Assembly (NCBI GenBank): GCA_038867615.1
Contig: JAWBYA010000002.1
Span: 32,001-96,000, forward strand
Length of the DNA stretch: 64,000 nucleotides
Direction of reading: 5' to 3'
Origin: Sulfolobales archaeon
Lineage (GTDB): Archaea; Thermoproteota; Thermoprotei_A; Sulfolobales; AG1
This document shows, piece by piece, positions 1,182 to 26,944 of this stretch. The notes under the pieces were generated by a model, which had not been told where the DNA came from, made no database searches, and worked only from the letters and a program-made list of their open reading frames with translations. A program made the translations under genes and the position numbers. Positions within the stretch are counted from its first letter, which is position 1, and each line of letters opens with the position of its first letter.

Positions 1182-4100
1182 TCACCCCTCCACGATCACA
1201 TAACCACCTTTAAGATAGATCTTCATGTCATCATCCTCGTATGTAGGCCTCACCTTCAACCTCACAGGCCTCCAAGGAGATTTCCCATCCTCACCTCCAG
1301 GCTCGAGCTTTACTATTTTGGCGAACCCCTCTCTAGGCGCCCCCACAGGGCTGTGTATATCTGGTGCGAACCCTTTACCCATTACTGCTACTAGCGGCGA
1401 CTTCCTGAATAGATCGTCTGTCATTAGAGTGGGTTTAAGCCATGTCCTCGTAACACTCTGGTGGCCTCCATACCTGAAGGAGGATATATAGCCTGTTCTC
1501 TCGTTTAGTGCCAGCCCATCAGGCCTCTTCTCATGCCCCTCAACGGTTCCATGACTTGCCATGTAGAAGTTAAACCATATCCTAGTCATACCCGGTGGTA
1601 TGCTATTGTTAAACCTGATCCTAGCCACCAGAGTGAAGGCTTTACGCTCCTCGGGCTTCTTATCAAGCCCCATGAAAGGCTCATAATCCGGATCTCCCTC
1701 AACCCTTACATAATCCCCATCGTCTAGTCCAAGCCTCCTCCCATCCTCAGGGTTTATGTCTACATAGCCCTCCGCAACCCAGGGCATCCTTTTATCCCTC
1801 CTGTAAATATCGCCGTATGGTGTGTAGTGTATTGCTAGTATATCGACGTTGCTGCATATGGTATGTATTAGTCCTTTATGCTTCGGGGTTATAATTATAT
1901 GGGTATATCCCTTAGCCTTGAGCGGGTGGCTTGTGGTTTTAACAACACTCCAAGGCTTGGCCACATGCCTAACCTGTCTAACCTCCTGGTCTAGGTTGTT
2001 AGGATCTAGCCCTAGATCTTCTGGCTTTAGAGGTCTTATTGCTTGGTGCGGCTTGTTAAGTATTATAACATTGGGCTCATAAGGCGTCGAGTTAGCAGGC
2101 TCCCTATAGACCGGTATGTTCTCCCCACTCTCTATGAAGGGGACTTCCTCTTTGTAGAACTCAAGCCTCCCAGTCTTAGTCCACCACGGCGCGCTCTCAT
2201 TGGTCTGCTCCCACCCGACAACGCTTGGTGTTGTCCTTGTAGCATACACAAACGGTATACCCTTCTTAGCATACTCCTCCAGCATCTCGTACGTCAGCCC
2301 CTTAGTCGCGTTGCCTGCAGCCAGCACTCTGTTAATATAAACCTCAGCCTTGTTCTCATGGATAAACCTCCAGTAATCCTTCATTCTCGGCTCTCCTAGG
2401 AGCTCGGCCATTTTAGCTGATATCCCAGCCATAACCTCCATATCGTCCTTCGTGTCGAATATCCTTGGCAACGGGGTTCTGGGCCATGCTACTATGAACG
2501 GGGTTGTCACGGTAACGGCTATGTCTGGGAGTTTCCTTTCAATCCAGCTGTCAACCCCGAATACAACGTCGGAGTACTCACATGTTAGAGTCCAGAACCA
2601 TTCTAAGGTTACTATAAGCTCTACTTTGGGTAGAACGTTAACTATAATGTTATAAGCCCATTTAGAGTTGCCGAGCGTCGAGTTAGCGTTTGCAAAGAAC
2701 ACTACCTTGGTTGGTGTGGGCATGTGGGTCTTGCCTGTGAACAGCCTACCAGCAATCTCTAGAGGCCTATCACCATAAGCATAGTAGTGAGCCGACTCTG
2801 CTGTGAAGTAAGATCTAACTCTAGCAGGCTTAGTTGGATCGAGCTCTGGATTGAAGGGATCCTCGGCTGTCCATTGTATTATACCATTAGTTAGCTCGAG
2901 TTTGAAGTTCCCAGCGTAGGTTCCTAAAGTCCCACCCATGTTGCCTATGTTGGCCGTTAAGGCTGCGAGAAGCATTATAGCTCTGTCTTTGAGGTCTCCA
3001 TGGAGGTATTGGTTTATACCCATGCCTAGGACAAAGAGGGTTTTACCCCTATTCTCTGCTATCTTCCTAGCAAGTCTCTCTATAGCCTCGGGCTCCACAC
3101 CCGTTATCTCGGATACTGTCTTCGGATCCATGCTGCTCATCACATACTCCTTCACGAGGTCAAAGACAGGCCTAACCTTGACTCTAGTACCATCTACCAA
3201 TGCAACCTCGAATTCTCCCTCCAATGCGGGGTCTACTCCCAACTCGTCGAAGTATTTGCCAACATGATCCCTTGAGACCACTTTAGGCGAGCCGGTCTTC
3301 AGATCCCAGGCTACGAAATCATCTATCTCATCTCTTAAAGCCTTGGGCCAGAACTGTACCCCTTGGAGCGCAGGGGGCGGGGGCGTCTCTTCAGGAGCTA
3401 TGACCTTAGTCCTGTTCTTGAGCTCCACAGGCTTGTAATCCTTGATTATATCTCTCGCCCTCAGGAATTTCAGGTTATCCATTCTAACAAGCAAGGGCAG
3501 GTCTGTGAACCTCTTGATGAAGGCCTCATCGTAGAGTTTATCCCTGATTATAACGTGAACCAGGCCTAGGGCTAATGCTGTGTCGGTTCCGCTCCTCACA
3601 ACTATATGTTCACGAGCCTGTGTAGCTGTGATCATGTATTCGTTAGATATTGTTATAATCTCAACACCCTTCGTACGAGCCTCTGAAAGCCATTTTGCTA
3701 CAGGCATTTTGGTCGAAACCCAGTTCATGCCCCAGATTATCGCGAGCCTTGCATGCTCCACCAGGTGTAGGTGGAAGTCTACAGCCTTAATCCCTGCTGT
3801 CATAGGCTGCCCCGGCGCCAAGTCGGTATGCCAGGCATAGTTATCCCAGGCTCTTCCACCTGCAGCCTTATCTGGGCCTACACCTCTGATCTTAGCGTCT
3901 AGTAGTGCGAGCATGTTGGCGAATCTCCAGAGAGAGGTTATCCTCATGGGGGCATTGAGAGGCATGCCAGCTCTAAACTTAAATGTTCTAACCCCAGCCT
4001 CGCTTACGGTCTCAACCATTTTGGGATGATAGCCTTGTTTGAGTAGCTTCTCAGCACCTGCCTTTCCACTATATGTCTCAGCTATATTGATCAACGCTTT

Positions 4101-10658: not shown

Positions 10659-10735
10659 GGGCCGGTAGCTCAGCCTGGAAGAGCGCTCGGTTGGCATCCG
10701 AGAGGACCCGGGTTCAAATCCCGGCCGGTCCACCA
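10659..10735 (+). tRNA. tRNA-Ala(GGC)
   Basis: Full cloverleaf: GGGCCGG/CCGGTCC acceptor with G3-U70, anticodon arm CTCGG-TT-GGC-AT-CCGAG, T loop TTCAAAT, encoded CCA. Confidence 0.98.
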
Positions 10736-19395: not shown

Positions 19396-19491
19396 GGGCC
19401 CGTAGCTCAGCCCGGTAGAGCGGCGGGCTTTTAACCCGTAGACCAGACCGCTGGGCGGAAGTCCCGGGTTCAAATCCCGGCGGGCCCGCCA
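19396..19491 (+). tRNA. tRNA-Lys(TTT) with a 19-nt non-canonical intron at 45/46
   Basis: GGGCCCG/CGGGCCC acceptor, GCGGG-CT-TTT-AA-CCCGT anticodon arm, TTCAAAT T loop, encoded CCA; extra 19 nt in the variable loop. Confidence 0.96.
19442..19460 (+). other. tRNA intron (bulge-helix-bulge) at position 45/46
   Basis: Central helix CCGU/GCGG, bulges AG^A and AA^G, intron hairpin CCAG-ACCG-CUGG; removal restores the A44-G-G-U-C48 variable loop. Confidence 0.92.
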
Positions 19492-23068: not shown

Positions 23069-24547
23069 TTTTCAGAAGCAGAGAGGATCCTGAGCAAGAG
23101 TGAGATCGAGGTTTTAAGAGCCATAGCCAGGATTAGGAGAGGCTCGATAGACGATGTTGAAAGAGCAAGCGGGATCCCGAGGAGCACTATAGCATCTATA
23201 GCAGAATCCCTAGCCCTGAAGAATCTCGTGAAGATCGAGAGGAGGGCGAGACAGATCTATAGAACAACCGAGGAGGGGCTTAAGAACCTGAACTCATTTC
23301 CAGAAGAGGAGCTTCTCGAACTCCTAAAGAGAATGGGCGGGGCAGCATCTATAAAGGAGATAGAGGATCTGTTTGGAAAAGAAAGAGCCTCGATCGCAAT
23401 AGCATGGGCTAGGAGGAGAGGGTGGGTAAGGATCGATAGCGGGAGGATCATATCCACAGGGGGGTATTCTATGGAGAGATATAGAAAAGCCCTCGAAAAA
23501 GCCGTGAAAGGCGCCACTGCCGAGGATCTCGGGCTATCGTCGGAAGAGCTTGCCGAGCTGGTTAGGAGGAGAATGCTTGTTAAGGAAGAAGCCGCCGAGG
23601 TTATCATCGAGATCTTAGAGAACGGGCTGAAAACACTAGAAGATCTGGGAGATCTTGTTATTGTGTCAAAACTAACGAGGGATATAGTGATCCAGAAGCC
23701 CAGGGGCATCTATATCAAGCCCTATAATGTAGAGGCAGAGCCTGCAAGGATCTATCCAGCCTATAGGCACTTTTACGTCGATTTCCTCGAAATGCTGAGA
23801 GAGATCATGCTATCCCTAGGCTTTGACGAGATTAGCGATGACCTTGTGGTTCCAGAGCTATGGAACTTCGACGTACTCTTCCAAGCCCAGGATCACCCCG
23901 CAAGAGAGATCCACGATACGCTTGTGGTGGAGGGAGGAGAGGCGGATCTGGGGATCTATGGTGATCTTTTGGAGAGGGTCTCTAGAGAGCATTCAAGGGG
24001 GTGGGGCTATGAGTACAATAGATCCATCGCCTCTAGGCTTGTCATGAGGAGCCAGACGACAGCTGCAACTATAAGGTATCTACACTACCATAGAGAACCC
24101 CCCGTGAGGGCCTTCATAATAGGTAGGGTGTTTAGGTTCGACAGGATCGATGCGAAACACTTGCCAGAGTTCCACCAGCTTGACGGGATTGCTATGGAGC
24201 ATGATATGAGTCTGAGGAAGCTTTTAGGAATACTTACACAGGTCACGAAAGCCCTGGGCTTCAGAGAGGTTATATTCAAACCCGGCTATTTCCCATTCAC
24301 AGAGCCCAGCGTCGAGGGGTATGTGAGAATAGGTGATCTAGGCTATGTAGAGATCTTCGGCTCAGGATTATTCAGACCAGAGGTTCTCAGAATGGCTGGT
24401 GTCAAGCATAACGTTGCTGCGTGGGGTATGGGGGTTGATAGGCTTGCAATGGCCTATCTAGCTATAAACGATATAAGGGAACTCTATACCCCGGAGATCG
24501 ATAGGCTGAGGTGGCATAGGATTGCCAGTTATAAGACTATCCATTAA
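23069..24547 (+). CDS. pheS: Phenylalanyl-tRNA synthetase alpha subunit (start uncertain, upstream of the ORF-track GTG 23228)
   Basis: WNFD.LFQ.QDHPARE.HDT, EFHQLDG, YFPFTEPS, AWGMG motifs; an open upstream frame encodes the N-terminal winged helix. Confidence 0.96.
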   Translation, partial: FSEAERILSKSEIEVLRAIARIRRGSIDDVERASGIPRSTIASIAESLALKNLVKIERRARQIYRTTEEGLKNLNSFPEEELLELLKRMGGAASIKEIEDLFGKERASIAIAWARRRGWVRIDSGRIISTGGYSMERYRKALEKAVKGATAEDLGLSSEELAELVRRRMLVKEEAAEVIIEILENGLKTLEDLGDLVIVSKLTRDIVIQKPRGIYIKPYNVEAEPARIYPAYRHFYVDFLEMLREIMLSLGFDEISDDLVVPELWNFDVLFQAQDHPAREIHDTLVVEGGEADLGIYGDLLERVSREHSRGWGYEYNRSIASRLVMRSQTTAATIRYLHYHREPPVRAFIIGRVFRFDRIDAKHLPEFHQLDGIAMEHDMSLRKLLGILTQVTKALGFREVIFKPGYFPFTEPSVEGYVRIGDLGYVEIFGSGLFRPEVLRMAGVKHNVAAWGMGVDRLAMAYLAINDIRELYTPEIDRLRWHRIASYKTIH

Positions 24548-26174
24548 CAGACTCATAAAAGCCATAGGGAAAGAGGTCTCTCTAAAGGAGCTTGAGAGAC
24601 TACTCATGAGGCTTAAAGCGGAGGTTGAAGAGGTTGGCGATAACCATATCTCGATCGAGATAAATAGCGACCGCCTCGACATGATGATCTCGGAGGGTGT
24701 TGCTAGAGCCCTGAAAGGACTGCTTGAAATCGAGGTCGGGATGCCTCGATATAGTTATAGAGATAGTGGTTACAAGCTAGAGGTTCTCGACGTACCATCA
24801 AGGCCATATATAGCAATGGCTATTGTTAGGGGTATTGAGAGCTCTGAGAACTATATCGAGGAGCTCATACAGTTCCAGGAGAAGCTCCACACAACGATTG
24901 GTAGGATGAGGAGAAAGGTTGCCATAGGGATCCACGATCTCTCGAAGGTACCCTCGAGAGAATGCGTATATAGAGAGCTCGAGCCGAGTGAGAGGCTCAT
25001 ACCCCTCGGGTACTCGAGATCCATGAGTGTTGCGGAAACCCTTAGCTCGACGGAGCAGGGAAGGCTCTATGGATCTATATCCCTAAGGGGTGGGAGAACC
25101 CCGGGGATCGTGTGTGGGGAGACGATCATAAGCATGCCGCCTGTTATAAACTCCAACATTACACGGATCACAGAGCACACAGAGGATCTTTTGATAGACG
25201 TCACAGGAATCGATCTAGACGCTGTTATAAAGACCCTCGAGATCCTATCAACAACGCTTGCAGAAGGCTCCAGATCTAGGGTGATAGAGAGAGTACTAGT
25301 AAAAGCTCCATGGGGTGTTATCGAAACCCCTAGGGGTGATGCCAAGGTTATGGAGATAGGTACAGACTGGGCATCAAGGATCCTTGGTATAGAGGGCATG
25401 GATCCCGGCGAGATGGCTAGAAAGCTTCTCATGATGAGGATAGATGCGAGGGTTCTGGATAGGGTTGTCGAGGCGACTATCCCACCATATAGAGTAGATA
25501 TAATAGATCCTGTGGATCTTGTGGAGGAGATCGCTATGGCCATGGATCTCAACACCCTAGAACCAGAACCACTAGCAACCATACTGCCTGGGAAGCCTAG
25601 TAGGGAGAGTGTTGTTAGAAGAACAATCAGGGATATAATGATCGGTCTCGGCTTCACAGAGATCTATAGACACGTGCTCACATCAAGCAAAATACTCACA
25701 GATCTCGGCTATAATGGCTTCCTCAGGATAAAGAACCCAGTATCGAGCGAGATGGACGCGGCAAGACCATCGATAATCCCAAGCCTCCTCGAGACCCTTA
25801 GACGCTCGCAACACTCACCCAAGCCCATCAAGATCTTCGAGATCGGGGAGATCGTGACCAGGGATCCTTCAATATATACCGGGTGGAGGACGAGACTATC
25901 GCTAGCGGCAGCGATCCTCGACTATGAGGTTAGCTTCGAGGATATACAGGCACCGCTCTTCTCACTACTAAGATCCCTGGGGCTCGAGCCAAAGACAGTG
26001 CAGGCTAAAAATAGCGTGTTTATAGATGGGAGAACAGCCCTCGTGGTTGTTAATGACAAACAGTTAGGATATGTGGGAGAAGTAAGAATAGAGATCCTCA
26101 GCACCCTTGAGATAGACTTCCCAGTAGCCCTGTTCGAGATCGATATATCTAAGATCCTTGAGATCCTTGGATAA
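24522..26174 (+). CDS. pheT: Phenylalanyl-tRNA synthetase beta subunit
   Basis: QEKLH.TIGR.RRKVAIGIHD, SMPPVINS, PPYR.DI..VDLVEE, NPVS motifs. Confidence 0.96.
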   Translation: MPVIRLSINRLIKAIGKEVSLKELERLLMRLKAEVEEVGDNHISIEINSDRLDMMISEGVARALKGLLEIEVGMPRYSYRDSGYKLEVLDVPSRPYIAMAIVRGIESSENYIEELIQFQEKLHTTIGRMRRKVAIGIHDLSKVPSRECVYRELEPSERLIPLGYSRSMSVAETLSSTEQGRLYGSISLRGGRTPGIVCGETIISMPPVINSNITRITEHTEDLLIDVTGIDLDAVIKTLEILSTTLAEGSRSRVIERVLVKAPWGVIETPRGDAKVMEIGTDWASRILGIEGMDPGEMARKLLMMRIDARVLDRVVEATIPPYRVDIIDPVDLVEEIAMAMDLNTLEPEPLATILPGKPSRESVVRRTIRDIMIGLGFTEIYRHVLTSSKILTDLGYNGFLRIKNPVSSEMDAARPSIIPSLLETLRRSQHSPKPIKIFEIGEIVTRDPSIYTGWRTRLSLAAAILDYEVSFEDIQAPLFSLLRSLGLEPKTVQAKNSVFIDGRTALVVVNDKQLGYVGEVRIEILSTLEIDFPVALFEIDISKILEILG

Positions 26175-26246
26175 GCCGAGCCGAGTCCTTACTCTCAAAC
26201 AATAGTATGGATTCCAAGTGTGTTTAGATCCAGTCCGACTCCATGT

Positions 26247-26258
26247 GAAAGCTTATAA
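26247..26258 (+). promoter_or_regulatory. BRE-TATA promoter of the tRNA half
   Basis: GAAAGC-TTATAA, sharing the core AAAGCTTATA with the tRNA-Ala promoter; 27 nt upstream of tRNA position 1. Confidence 0.75.
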
Positions 26259-26284
26259 GCGATAGTGGTTTATTAGAAATGGGC

Positions 26285-26341
26285 GCCGCGGTAGTATAGC
26301 CCGGCCCAGTATGCGGGCCAGGTAGGCCGCCGGGGCCGCGG
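26285..26341 (+). tRNA. 5' half (positions 1-32) of a putative split tRNA-Asp/Glu plus GC-rich trailer
   Basis: GCCGCGG-TA-GTAT-AGCCCGGCCCA-GTAT-G-CGGGC-C (26285-26319) matches crenarchaeal tRNA-Asp/Glu 5' ends. It is followed by A-GGTAGGCCGCCGGGGCCGCGG instead of an anticodon; no T arm follows. Confidence 0.75.
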
Positions 26342-26345
26342 TTTT
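26342..26345 (+). terminator. Oligo-T terminator after the tRNA half
   Basis: TTTT immediately after the GC-rich trailer. Confidence 0.45.
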
Positions 26346-26377
26346 CCACAATATTTTCTCTGATAGTATAGTAATGG

Positions 26378-26944
26378 ATGGAGACCATGTTGAATAGAGA
26401 AGAGGATGTCCTTCCGGGTACGTTGCTCGGGGTTATAGAGGAGTTCATTCCAGGGGCTAATGTTTATGAGATCGATGGTAAGATCTTCTCAAGCGTTATT
26501 GGGGTACCAAGGCTTGATATGATTAAGAGGGTTGCGTGGGTCGAGCCTAGATCGAGGGTACAGACCCCGACCCAGGGATCCATGGTGTATGCCTTCGTCA
26601 CCAGTGTTAGGGAGGAGACCGCGATGCTAAGGGTAATAGCACAGGATCTTAGAAACCCCTATAAGCATGGGTTCGGAGGCATTCTCCACATATCCCAGGC
26701 GAGGAGCAGCCCTGGTGAGAGGAATCTTCAGGAGATCATCAGGCTAGGAGATCTTGTCTATGCTAAGGTTCTTTCTAAGAGCAATCCCTATATATTATCG
26801 CTGAAAGCCCCAAAAGCTGGTGTGGTTCTCTCACTATGCCCCAAATGCGCCTCCTACCAGAGGCTTAAGGGAGGGAAGCTAGTATGCCCTAGATGTGGTT
26901 TTGAGGAGAGTAGAAGGGTTTCACAGCTCTATATATCACTCTAA
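26378..26944 (+). CDS. csl4: Exosome RNA-binding subunit Csl4
   Basis: VLPG..LG..EEF.PG N-terminus, S1 domain (GILHISQ, GDLVYAKV) and a CPKC..CPRC zinc ribbon. Confidence 0.93.
   Translation: METMLNREEDVLPGTLLGVIEEFIPGANVYEIDGKIFSSVIGVPRLDMIKRVAWVEPRSRVQTPTQGSMVYAFVTSVREETAMLRVIAQDLRNPYKHGFGGILHISQARSSPGERNLQEIIRLGDLVYAKVLSKSNPYILSLKAPKAGVVLSLCPKCASYQRLKGGKLVCPRCGFEESRRVSQLYISL

Follow-up and report, generated by a model that had tools for sequence, protein, structure and literature searches.

In the window, a stretch of 64,000 nucleotides (nt) from the genome of an uncultured hot-spring archaeon (G000:C2:32001-96000), a free-standing tRNA 5' fragment lies between the genes pheT and csl4. 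We consider it very probable that this element is piece 1 (P1) of a tri-split tRNA-Asp(GUC) gene, whose middle piece (P2) and 3' piece (P3) lie elsewhere in the same genome. The source genome (G000) amounts to 2.22 Mb in 28 contigs, is 94.4% complete and belongs to genus g1 (G000-G005), which is compared below with its sister genus g3 (G007 and G009) and with the neighbouring genus g2. The parts of P1, followed by its flanking genes, have the following positions in the window.

26253-26260, plus strand: TATA-type promoter box TTATAAGC, an exact match, starting 32 nt before tRNA position 1.
26285-26319, plus strand: exon 1 of tRNA-Asp(GUC), positions 1-32, identical to exon 1 of the two-intron Asp gene of g3.
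26320-26341, plus strand: trailer AGGTAGGCCGCCGGGGCCGCGG, GC-rich, 22 nt, a putative intron-derived pairing arm that pairs with the P2 leader.
26342-26345, plus strand: oligo-T TTTT, the likely transcription stop of P1, kept in G002 and G003.
24522-26174, plus strand: pheT (PheRS beta chain), a flanking gene outside the element, used as locus marker.
26378-26944, plus strand: gene for a Csl4-like exosome subunit, flanking and outside the element, with an ECR1_N domain (E 1.3e-10).

P1 (G000:C2:58285-58341, plus strand; window 26285-26341) begins with a 35-nt exon, GCCGCGGTAGTATAGCCCGGCCCAGTATGCGGGCC, which follows the TTATAAGC box after a 24-nt spacer and runs from G1 (26285) to C32 (26319), its length being accounted for by positions 1-32 plus three extra D-loop bases. 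It comprises the acceptor 5' strand, a D stem GUAU/GUAU, G26, the 5' strand of the anticodon stem (C27-C31) and C32, and it matches the two intact tRNA-Glu genes of G000 at 33 of 35 positions and exon 1 of the g3 tRNA-Asp gene at all 35. In the trailer, A26320 closes the 5' bulge C31-C32^A, while GGU and then GCCGCCGGGGCC pair with the leader of P2. Oligo-T, a transcription termination signal in archaea, directly follows both P1 and P2. Boxes of the TTATAAGC type were found at two mismatches or fewer in 26 of the 42 tRNA genes of G000 used for comparison, mostly from -30 to -34, and at one mismatch or fewer in the tRNA promoter zone of 11 of the 42; among 20000 random places, 23 had the exact box and 304 a box with at most one mismatch. 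The box is exact at -32 in P1 and at -30 in P3, and carries one mismatch at -28 in P2. The scan for sigma-70 promoters and intrinsic terminators is inapplicable to an archaeon.

A first-pass annotation of the window had described here a transcription unit made of box, positions 1-32, intact D arm, 22-nt trailer and TTTT, with the promoter core and spacing of a tRNA gene. All these parts can be read directly, and the exact box stands at the place usual for G000. P1 was missed by ARAGORN and by Rfam, the latter both at gathering scores on the window and at E<=10 on positions 26200-26400 (0 matches); as the annotation had stated, no tRNA 3' half was found in the window by either program, the only calls there being tRNA-Ala (10659-10735) and tRNA-Lys (19396-19491). 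It had also named a misassembly at 26320 as a possible refutation. In a comparison restricted to DNA contigs, one Logan contig (X6, record 9), which comes from an independent study, spans positions 25900-26440 with 0 differences, and five other g1 genomes show the same break, so that a misassembly at 26319/26320 is ruled out. Contigs of other organisms (eight in X5, five in X9) match positions 26285-26319 and then diverge, continuing as TGTCGAGCCCGTGACCCGGG... (start TGTCGAGCCCG...); homology to ordinary tRNA-Asp genes thus stops exactly at C32. P1 also comes after pheT in the two nearest relatives that bear a name, and the literature search brought up no paper in which the nearer of the two is mentioned.

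When G000 was searched for T arms joined to the acceptor strand CCGCGGC, a single orphan was retrieved, namely P3 (C2:139496-139555, minus strand), 81 kb from P1 and beyond the window. P3 consists of a TTTATAAGC box, 22 nt, the leader GGGGCCTGTGGGCGCTGCGGAT and then AGCCCG-TGAC-CCGGG-TTCAAAT-CCCGG-CCGCGGC-G-CCA, that is, positions 38-76 with the Asp-type discriminator G73 (A73 in the Glu genes), an encoded CCA and no anticodon. By blastn-short, the best non-self complement of the P3 leader in G000 is a 13/13 match at C5:689-701, which falls within P2, a 47-nt transcript locus at C5:661-707 (plus strand). P2 is laid out as a ATATAAGC box, a spacer, CTCCGGCGGCGCCCCCGAA-TGTCG-CGGTGCCCACAGGCCCCCGCTAG and then TTTTTATTTT (T-run TTTTT), the core of a P2-type gene reading CCCCCGAAUGUCG. 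Its exon is UGUCG only, positions 33-37 with the anticodon GUC; its 5' arm fits the P1 trailer and its 3' arm the P3 leader. One locus holds both arms, the five missing bases between them, bulge-defined cut sites, a promoter and a stop. As P2 gives positions 33-37 and P3 positions 38-76, the gene would be tri-split and not bi-split. No second middle piece was found in G000, and none of the 10 open reading frames (ORFs) scanned beside the three pieces has an integrase or other mobile-element domain.

The first-pass annotation had proposed a trans-spliced half with a distant partner. P1 is indeed free-standing, broken after C32 and distant from its partner, but the partner is a middle piece and not a 3' half. 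The half bulge-helix-bulge (BHB) recognised at its end (helix C27-G30, bulge C31-C32^A, pairing arm) finds in P2 the predicted counterpart, CCCG-AA-T-GTC. The suggested search for an exactly complementary leader led nowhere: a 17-mer of the exact complement of the P1 trailer, at two mismatches or fewer, matches only itself in G000. In the P1:P2 pairing, one pair is G.U and two bases are bulged out.

Joined in silico, the exons of P1, P2 and P3 are called by ARAGORN as tRNA-Asp(gtc), 78 nt with CCA and with a canonical cloverleaf. Contiguous Asp genes were found in 60 of the 81 genomes sampled from the order, and the anticodon arm most frequent among them, GCGGGCC-TGTCG-AGCCCGTGAC, is that of the joined exons; the four g1 genomes in this sample yielded no contiguous Asp anticodon arm. 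As had been suggested, the isoacceptors of G000 were checked: both Glu genes are intact and no intact Asp gene was found. The Rfam tRNA model gave 44 matches on G000, 0 of them Asp, and of 17 hairpins with a YU-GUC-RN loop 0 have tRNA flanks. The contiguous 13-mer ATGCGGGCCTGTC across 32/33 has 0 exact matches in G000-G004 (81-96% complete); with one mismatch it has 13, of which 10 are Glu genes and the other three are all in G002. ARAGORN (50 calls on G000) returned two 'Asp' calls, both artefacts, with 'introns' of 1742 and 134 nt. The second of them, a 'tRNA-Asp(gtc)' at C5:102408-102637, was rejected, its 3' part being the shared 3' half of a split tRNA-Gln and its 5' part not being tRNA-like; automatic annotation could therefore conceal the tri-split Asp as well as the split Gln. 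Counting these two, all 20 amino acids have a tRNA in G000.

The minimum free energy (MFE) structure predicted for P1, P2 and P3 as three strands has -106.3 kcal/mol, and in it the P1:P3 acceptor stem and both arm duplexes form, with 3 + 12 base pairs (bp) for P1:P2 and 16-20 bp for P2:P3. At junction 32/33, the local MFE fold (P1 positions 25-32 and trailer with P2 leader and exon) consists of a 4-bp helix between C27-G30 and CCCG, a 3-nt bulge C31-C32-A, 3 bp GGU:GCC, a 2-nt bulge and a 12-bp arm, with A-A-U33 on P2 directly after the helix, and the pieces of G001 have this structure as their MFE too. Since the exon-side outer helix is missing, this motif is a relaxed BHB. At 37/38, a canonical motif (hBHBh') can be drawn, in which the anticodon stem 27-31:39-43 is followed by a central helix of C32-U33-G34-U35 with GCGG of the P3 leader, the bulges C36-G37^C and A-U^A38, and a 16-bp arm; 25 of its 25 pairs are standard and its energy is -48.8 kcal/mol. 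In a BHB, the cut falls after the second bulge base. G000 encodes two ORFs of the EndA family (PF01974), of 198 aa (112 bits) and 162 aa (31 bits), located in the C1:316186-316440 and C2:116528-116761 regions, as well as RtcB (577 bits), and a two-subunit EndA pattern is expected for the alpha-beta enzyme of Crenarchaeota. According to the available text of PMC5829648, non-canonical sites are cut only by (alpha-beta)2 and epsilon2 endonucleases.

The sequences show two pairings between arms, that of the P1 trailer with the leader of P2 and that of the P2 trailer with the leader of P3, and an acceptor stem between P1 and P3. On these grounds the following pathway may be proposed. A heterotetrameric endonuclease would cut the relaxed BHB at 32/33 (helix C27-G30:CCCG, bulges CC^A and AA^U) and the canonical BHB at 37/38 (helix C32-U35:GCGG, bulges CG^C and AU^A, 16-bp arm), and RtcB would ligate the exons. 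Positions 27-30 are paired to P2 in the motif at 32/33 but to positions 40-43 in that at 37/38, and the two motifs are therefore mutually exclusive; it follows that the cuts would be made in different conformers and that splicing is probably ordered. In such an ordered splicing, the 5-nt exon would stay tethered to a long arm until one of its sides is ligated. To our knowledge, this exon would be the shortest in any trans-spliced tRNA.

P1 ending at C32, followed by a trailer AGG(U/A)AGGCCGCC..., is present in all six g1 genomes, P2 in five of the six and P3 with its leader in four. Outside the genus, 35 genomes gave 0 matches to P2 DNA at E<=1e-8, none being better than E 0.04. The arrangement is stable in the group of the window, P1 following pheT and, in G000 as in G003, being separated from P3 by 81 kb of a single contig. 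PheRS beta identity is 91-96% within the group of the window and 64% in two further records, where pheT is not followed by P1; these two records are taken to be the second species group, their tie to G001, G004 and G005 being assumed. The proximal 6 bp of the P1:P2 duplex are common to both species groups and the distal parts differ, with GGGGCC:GGCUCC in G000, G002 and G003 and CAGGGUCU(C):(G)AGACCCUG (strand pair CAGGGUCUC:GAGACCCUG) in G001, G004 and G005. Despite the unlinked loci, the distal arms are complementary within each genome: the cognate P1:P2 duplexes reach -38.6 and -44.5 kcal/mol, while cross-group duplexes reach -26 to -29, close to the shuffled mean of -25.9. The P2:P3 arm is nearly constant in g1, two G.U pairs having become G-C in G001. 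Within the genus, only two letters of exons and bulges vary: P2 has C or A as the first base of its trailer, and P3 has U or C as the last base of its leader. In the second group, P1 (L019, L020 and L021, from G004, G001 and G005, respectively) has the P2-pairing segment CCCAGGGTCTCT followed by an inverted repeat of its own, AGAGATCCTGGG; the trailer could therefore fold on itself in competition with P2.

In the sister genus g3, tRNA-Asp is one gene with two introns (G009, L023:1503-1618; G007, L024:~294-409), laid out as ...GCGGGCC|AGGATCTACGTGGTCCCCCGAA|TGTCG|GGCCGTTGGCGCAGAT|AGCCCG... The intron at 32/33 has 22 nt and ends in CCCCCGAA, and that at 37/38 has 16 nt and ends in GCAGAT; for the latter, the canonical register alone is available. 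In g2, tRNA-Asp is contiguous (four genomes) or has one canonical 37/38 intron. With the exception of one ambiguous match in G055, no insertion between GCGGGCC and TGTC at 32/33 was found elsewhere in the 81-genome sample of the order. The ends of the g3 introns (AGGA..., ...CCCCCGAA and ...GGCGCAGAT) recur in g1 at the inner ends of trailers and leaders, and the simplest history is thus that the ancestor common to g1 and g3 gained an intron at 32/33 and that breakage came later. The two-intron gene, still intact in g3, would have been broken inside both introns before the two g1 groups split. Flanking context is not shared among g3, g2 and g1, since the neighbours of the intact Asp genes in G009 and in G012 have their counterparts in G000 at other places (C1:549 kb, C2:117 kb and C2:5 kb).

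A number of observations weigh against a tri-split tRNA-Asp gene. G004 (81% complete) yielded neither P2 nor P3, and G005 (93% complete) yielded no P3. The motif at 32/33 is devoid of the exon-side outer helix. At 37/38, the MFE fold in G000 has its helix slid by three bases (20 bp, -57.0 kcal/mol, that is 8 kcal/mol better than the canonical motif), and in G001 it adopts another register, with UGUC paired to GACA; thermodynamic prediction alone therefore does not favour the canonical motif at this site. In a duplex scan of 64527 GC-rich windows, P2 was outside the best eight for the P1 trailer, at least five unrelated windows reaching -43.5 kcal/mol or better as compared with -38.6 for P2, and it ranked second among the non-self windows for the P3 leader. 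Among at least 500 shuffled partners of the P1 trailer, one reached -40.4 and thus beats the real one. Since duplex energy alone fails to pick out P2, the case rests on the coincidence of features at P2, on conservation and on the replacement of the arms. In addition, it is from sequence alone that we infer transcription, cleavage and ligation of the three pieces, and a genome that is 94.4% complete and in 28 contigs leaves formal room for an intact Asp gene in its unassembled part.

On this last point is built the alternative that P1, P2 and P3 are relics of a broken Asp gene, the working tRNA-Asp coming from an intact, possibly foreign, gene that the assembly lacks. Metagenome bins often miss tRNA genes, and G000 does hold tRNA-Gly 3' fragments that resemble integration scars. 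Still, a contiguous Asp anticodon arm was found neither in G000-G004 nor in the four genomes by which g1 is represented in the order sample, the promoter boxes and T-runs of all three pieces are kept across species, and the letters of exons and bulges stay constant while the arms change on both partners, whereas relics would not keep complementarity between unlinked loci; we regard this explanation as quite unlikely. Even more doubtful is that P1 is an independent small RNA, a tRNA-derived regulator or decoy, to which P2 and P3 would be unrelated. It has its own promoter and stop and is predicted to fold stably alone (-29.4 kcal/mol), its tail pairing with its own 5' end, but G003 has GGCCGGC in place of this self-pairing CCGCGG tail, P2 alone carries both fitting arms and the missing 5 nt at bulge-defined cut sites, and no other source of tRNA-Asp was found in G000.

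We give hardly any credence to a two-piece split, in which P1 would join a distant 3' half bearing the anticodon and possibly serve Asp and both Glu, a combinatorial use considered possible by the first-pass annotation. In its favour, 33 of the 35 bases of the P1 exon agree with those of the Glu 5' halves, and halves are shared in Nanoarchaeum and Caldivirga (as given in the available part of PMC4390854). The only orphan 3' piece with a matching acceptor, however, starts at A38 without an anticodon, and its leader does not complement the P1 trailer, for which no complement exists anywhere in G000 at two mismatches or fewer. Combinatorial use, in turn, is unsupported, the genes for Glu(CUC) and Glu(UUC) being intact, a single middle piece having been found and P3 having G73 where the Glu genes have A73. 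Two further candidates were rejected. A tRNA pseudogene or attachment-site scar is at odds with the lack of an intact Asp gene to copy, with the exact promoter box and with conservation in 6/6 genomes with co-varying partners; two adjacent halves joined only at 37/38 are contradicted by the three pieces, the 32/33 split and the location of P2 on another contig. Sites at G000:C3:267208-267232, C10:75-103 and C10:41180-41241, the last two at either end of C10, resemble attachment-site duplications of integrated elements, and contig C10 may be one such element.

Besides the tri-split tRNA-Asp, a split tRNA-Gln was observed in the same genome. Two promoter-bearing 5' halves, for UUG at L115:1026-1087 (G000:C9:3025-3086) and for CUG at G000:C2:273527-273580, both end after G37 and continue into a GC-rich trailer (...GCGCCGCCCC). 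Both fit a single 3' half at L116:1080-1138 (G000:C5:102579-102637), which has the leader GGGGCGGCGC... and with which the acceptor pair A1:U72 is formed. The predicted cofold of the C9 half with the C5 half (-75.4 kcal/mol) contains the acceptor stem and the arm duplex. Joins of the Gln halves made by brute force were uninformative, a large number of cut points being acceptable to ARAGORN. G001, G002, G003 and G005 each have the two 5' halves with their trailers and G004 has one of them; no intact Gln gene was called in G000. The two Lys tRNA genes, in the window at 19396-19491 (UUU) and at G000:C2:247448-247544 (CUU), carry an insertion of about 20 nt after the anticodon arm, at the same place and of similar sequence (GUAGACCAGA...CUGGGCGGAA) in both, which is probably a non-canonical intron common to the two genes. 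In two more distant Desulfurococcales records (L065 and L066, ~3190-3330), pheT is followed by a GC-rich structured stretch, GGGGCCCGACAACCCCGCUCCUACCGGAGAGAGCCCG..., that may be a signal recognition particle (SRP) RNA gene.

In the available text of PMC4033280, PMC4390854 and PMC4090602, tri-split tRNAs are attributed to Caldivirga maquilingensis alone (2009, Fujishima et al.), with tRNA-Gly exons 1-25, 26-37 and 38-end, and the split sites named there are 37/38, 25/26, 29/30 and 30/31; 32/33 is not among them, in keeping with the first-pass remark that a split at this site was not known to have been described. No description of a tri-split tRNA-Asp was found in the literature, supplements (e.g. 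the additional files of Chan et al.) lying outside the search. As far as it is described in these sources, the tRNA-Gly of Caldivirga is likewise made from three separate transcripts with complementary leaders and trailers and with the anticodon on the middle piece; it too combines one canonical (37/38) and one non-canonical split, and its arms resemble introns that related species have at the corresponding sites. Caldivirga belongs to the Thermoproteales and the tRNA is Gly, whereas the present case concerns Asp in a Desulfurococcales-type hot-spring archaeon; the splits are at 32/33 and 37/38 instead of 25/26 and 37/38, and the middle exon has 5 nt (33-37) instead of 12 (26-37). Unlike those of Caldivirga, as reported in the same text, the present pieces are not shared among isoacceptors, and both junctions fall in one anticodon arm with mutually exclusive motifs. 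The Caldivirga case is described as shown by reverse transcription PCR (RT-PCR), whereas ours is known from the DNA sequence. At that level, the present gene shows the traits by which the tri-split kind is recognised, with a canonical BHB at 37/38 that can be drawn but is not the MFE fold.

The two-piece tRNA-Asp(GUC) of Aeropyrum and Thermosphaera concerns the same tRNA in the same broad lineage, with a canonical hBHBh' at 37/38 followed by a GC-rich stem, and was likewise judged recent and derived from an ancestral contiguous gene. There, however, two adjacent pieces are found in single species, whereas here three pieces, with an extra split at 32/33, are separated by 81 kb and by a change of contig throughout a genus, the two-intron ancestor being kept in the sister genus. 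Nanoarchaeum equitans (Randau et al. 2005; PMC4390854 and PMC4090602, available parts) resembles our case in its dispersed half genes with their own promoters, in the GC-rich complementary extensions, in the relaxed BHB and in the (alpha-beta)2 endonuclease; it differs in having two pieces for each tRNA, split at 37/38 and 30/31, and in the reduced genome of a symbiont as compared with one of 2.2 Mb. Finally, the multiple-intron tRNA genes of Crenarchaeota, with relaxed-BHB introns (Sugahara et al., as cited in the available part of PMC4033280), are the kind to which the g3 gene belongs; their introns are in cis, whereas in g1 the introns are broken and the exons lie at unlinked loci.

Taking the evidence together, we incline, though only slightly, to a wider view: in a whole genus of uncultured hot-spring Desulfurococcales, three transcripts from unlinked loci would be spliced in a fixed order into the sole tRNA-Asp, with P2 contributing UGUCG; the present genome would also make both tRNA-Gln isoacceptors from two alternative 5' halves and a common 3' half, and the neighbouring genera would preserve an intron-to-split series. 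Standard tRNA finders miss P1, P2 and P3, so that such genomes would be reported without tRNA-Asp, and in G000 ARAGORN builds a false one. The 5-nt anticodon exon with its exclusive motifs offers a testable case of ordered trans-splicing. If the reading as a tri-split gene is true, this would be the second three-piece tRNA described, and three-way fragmentation would not be a one-off. The case would be independent of that of Caldivirga, as it occurs in another order and in another tRNA and is kept over a genus whose groups share 64% PheRS beta identity. The neighbouring genera keep what may be earlier stages, from Asp genes that are contiguous or have one canonical intron, through two introns, to three pieces. 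Such a series across g2, g3 and g1 would be unusually direct support for the derivation of split tRNA genes from intron-containing genes, and not from a primordial state, and would thus bear on the dispute about an ancestral or a derived origin of split tRNAs.

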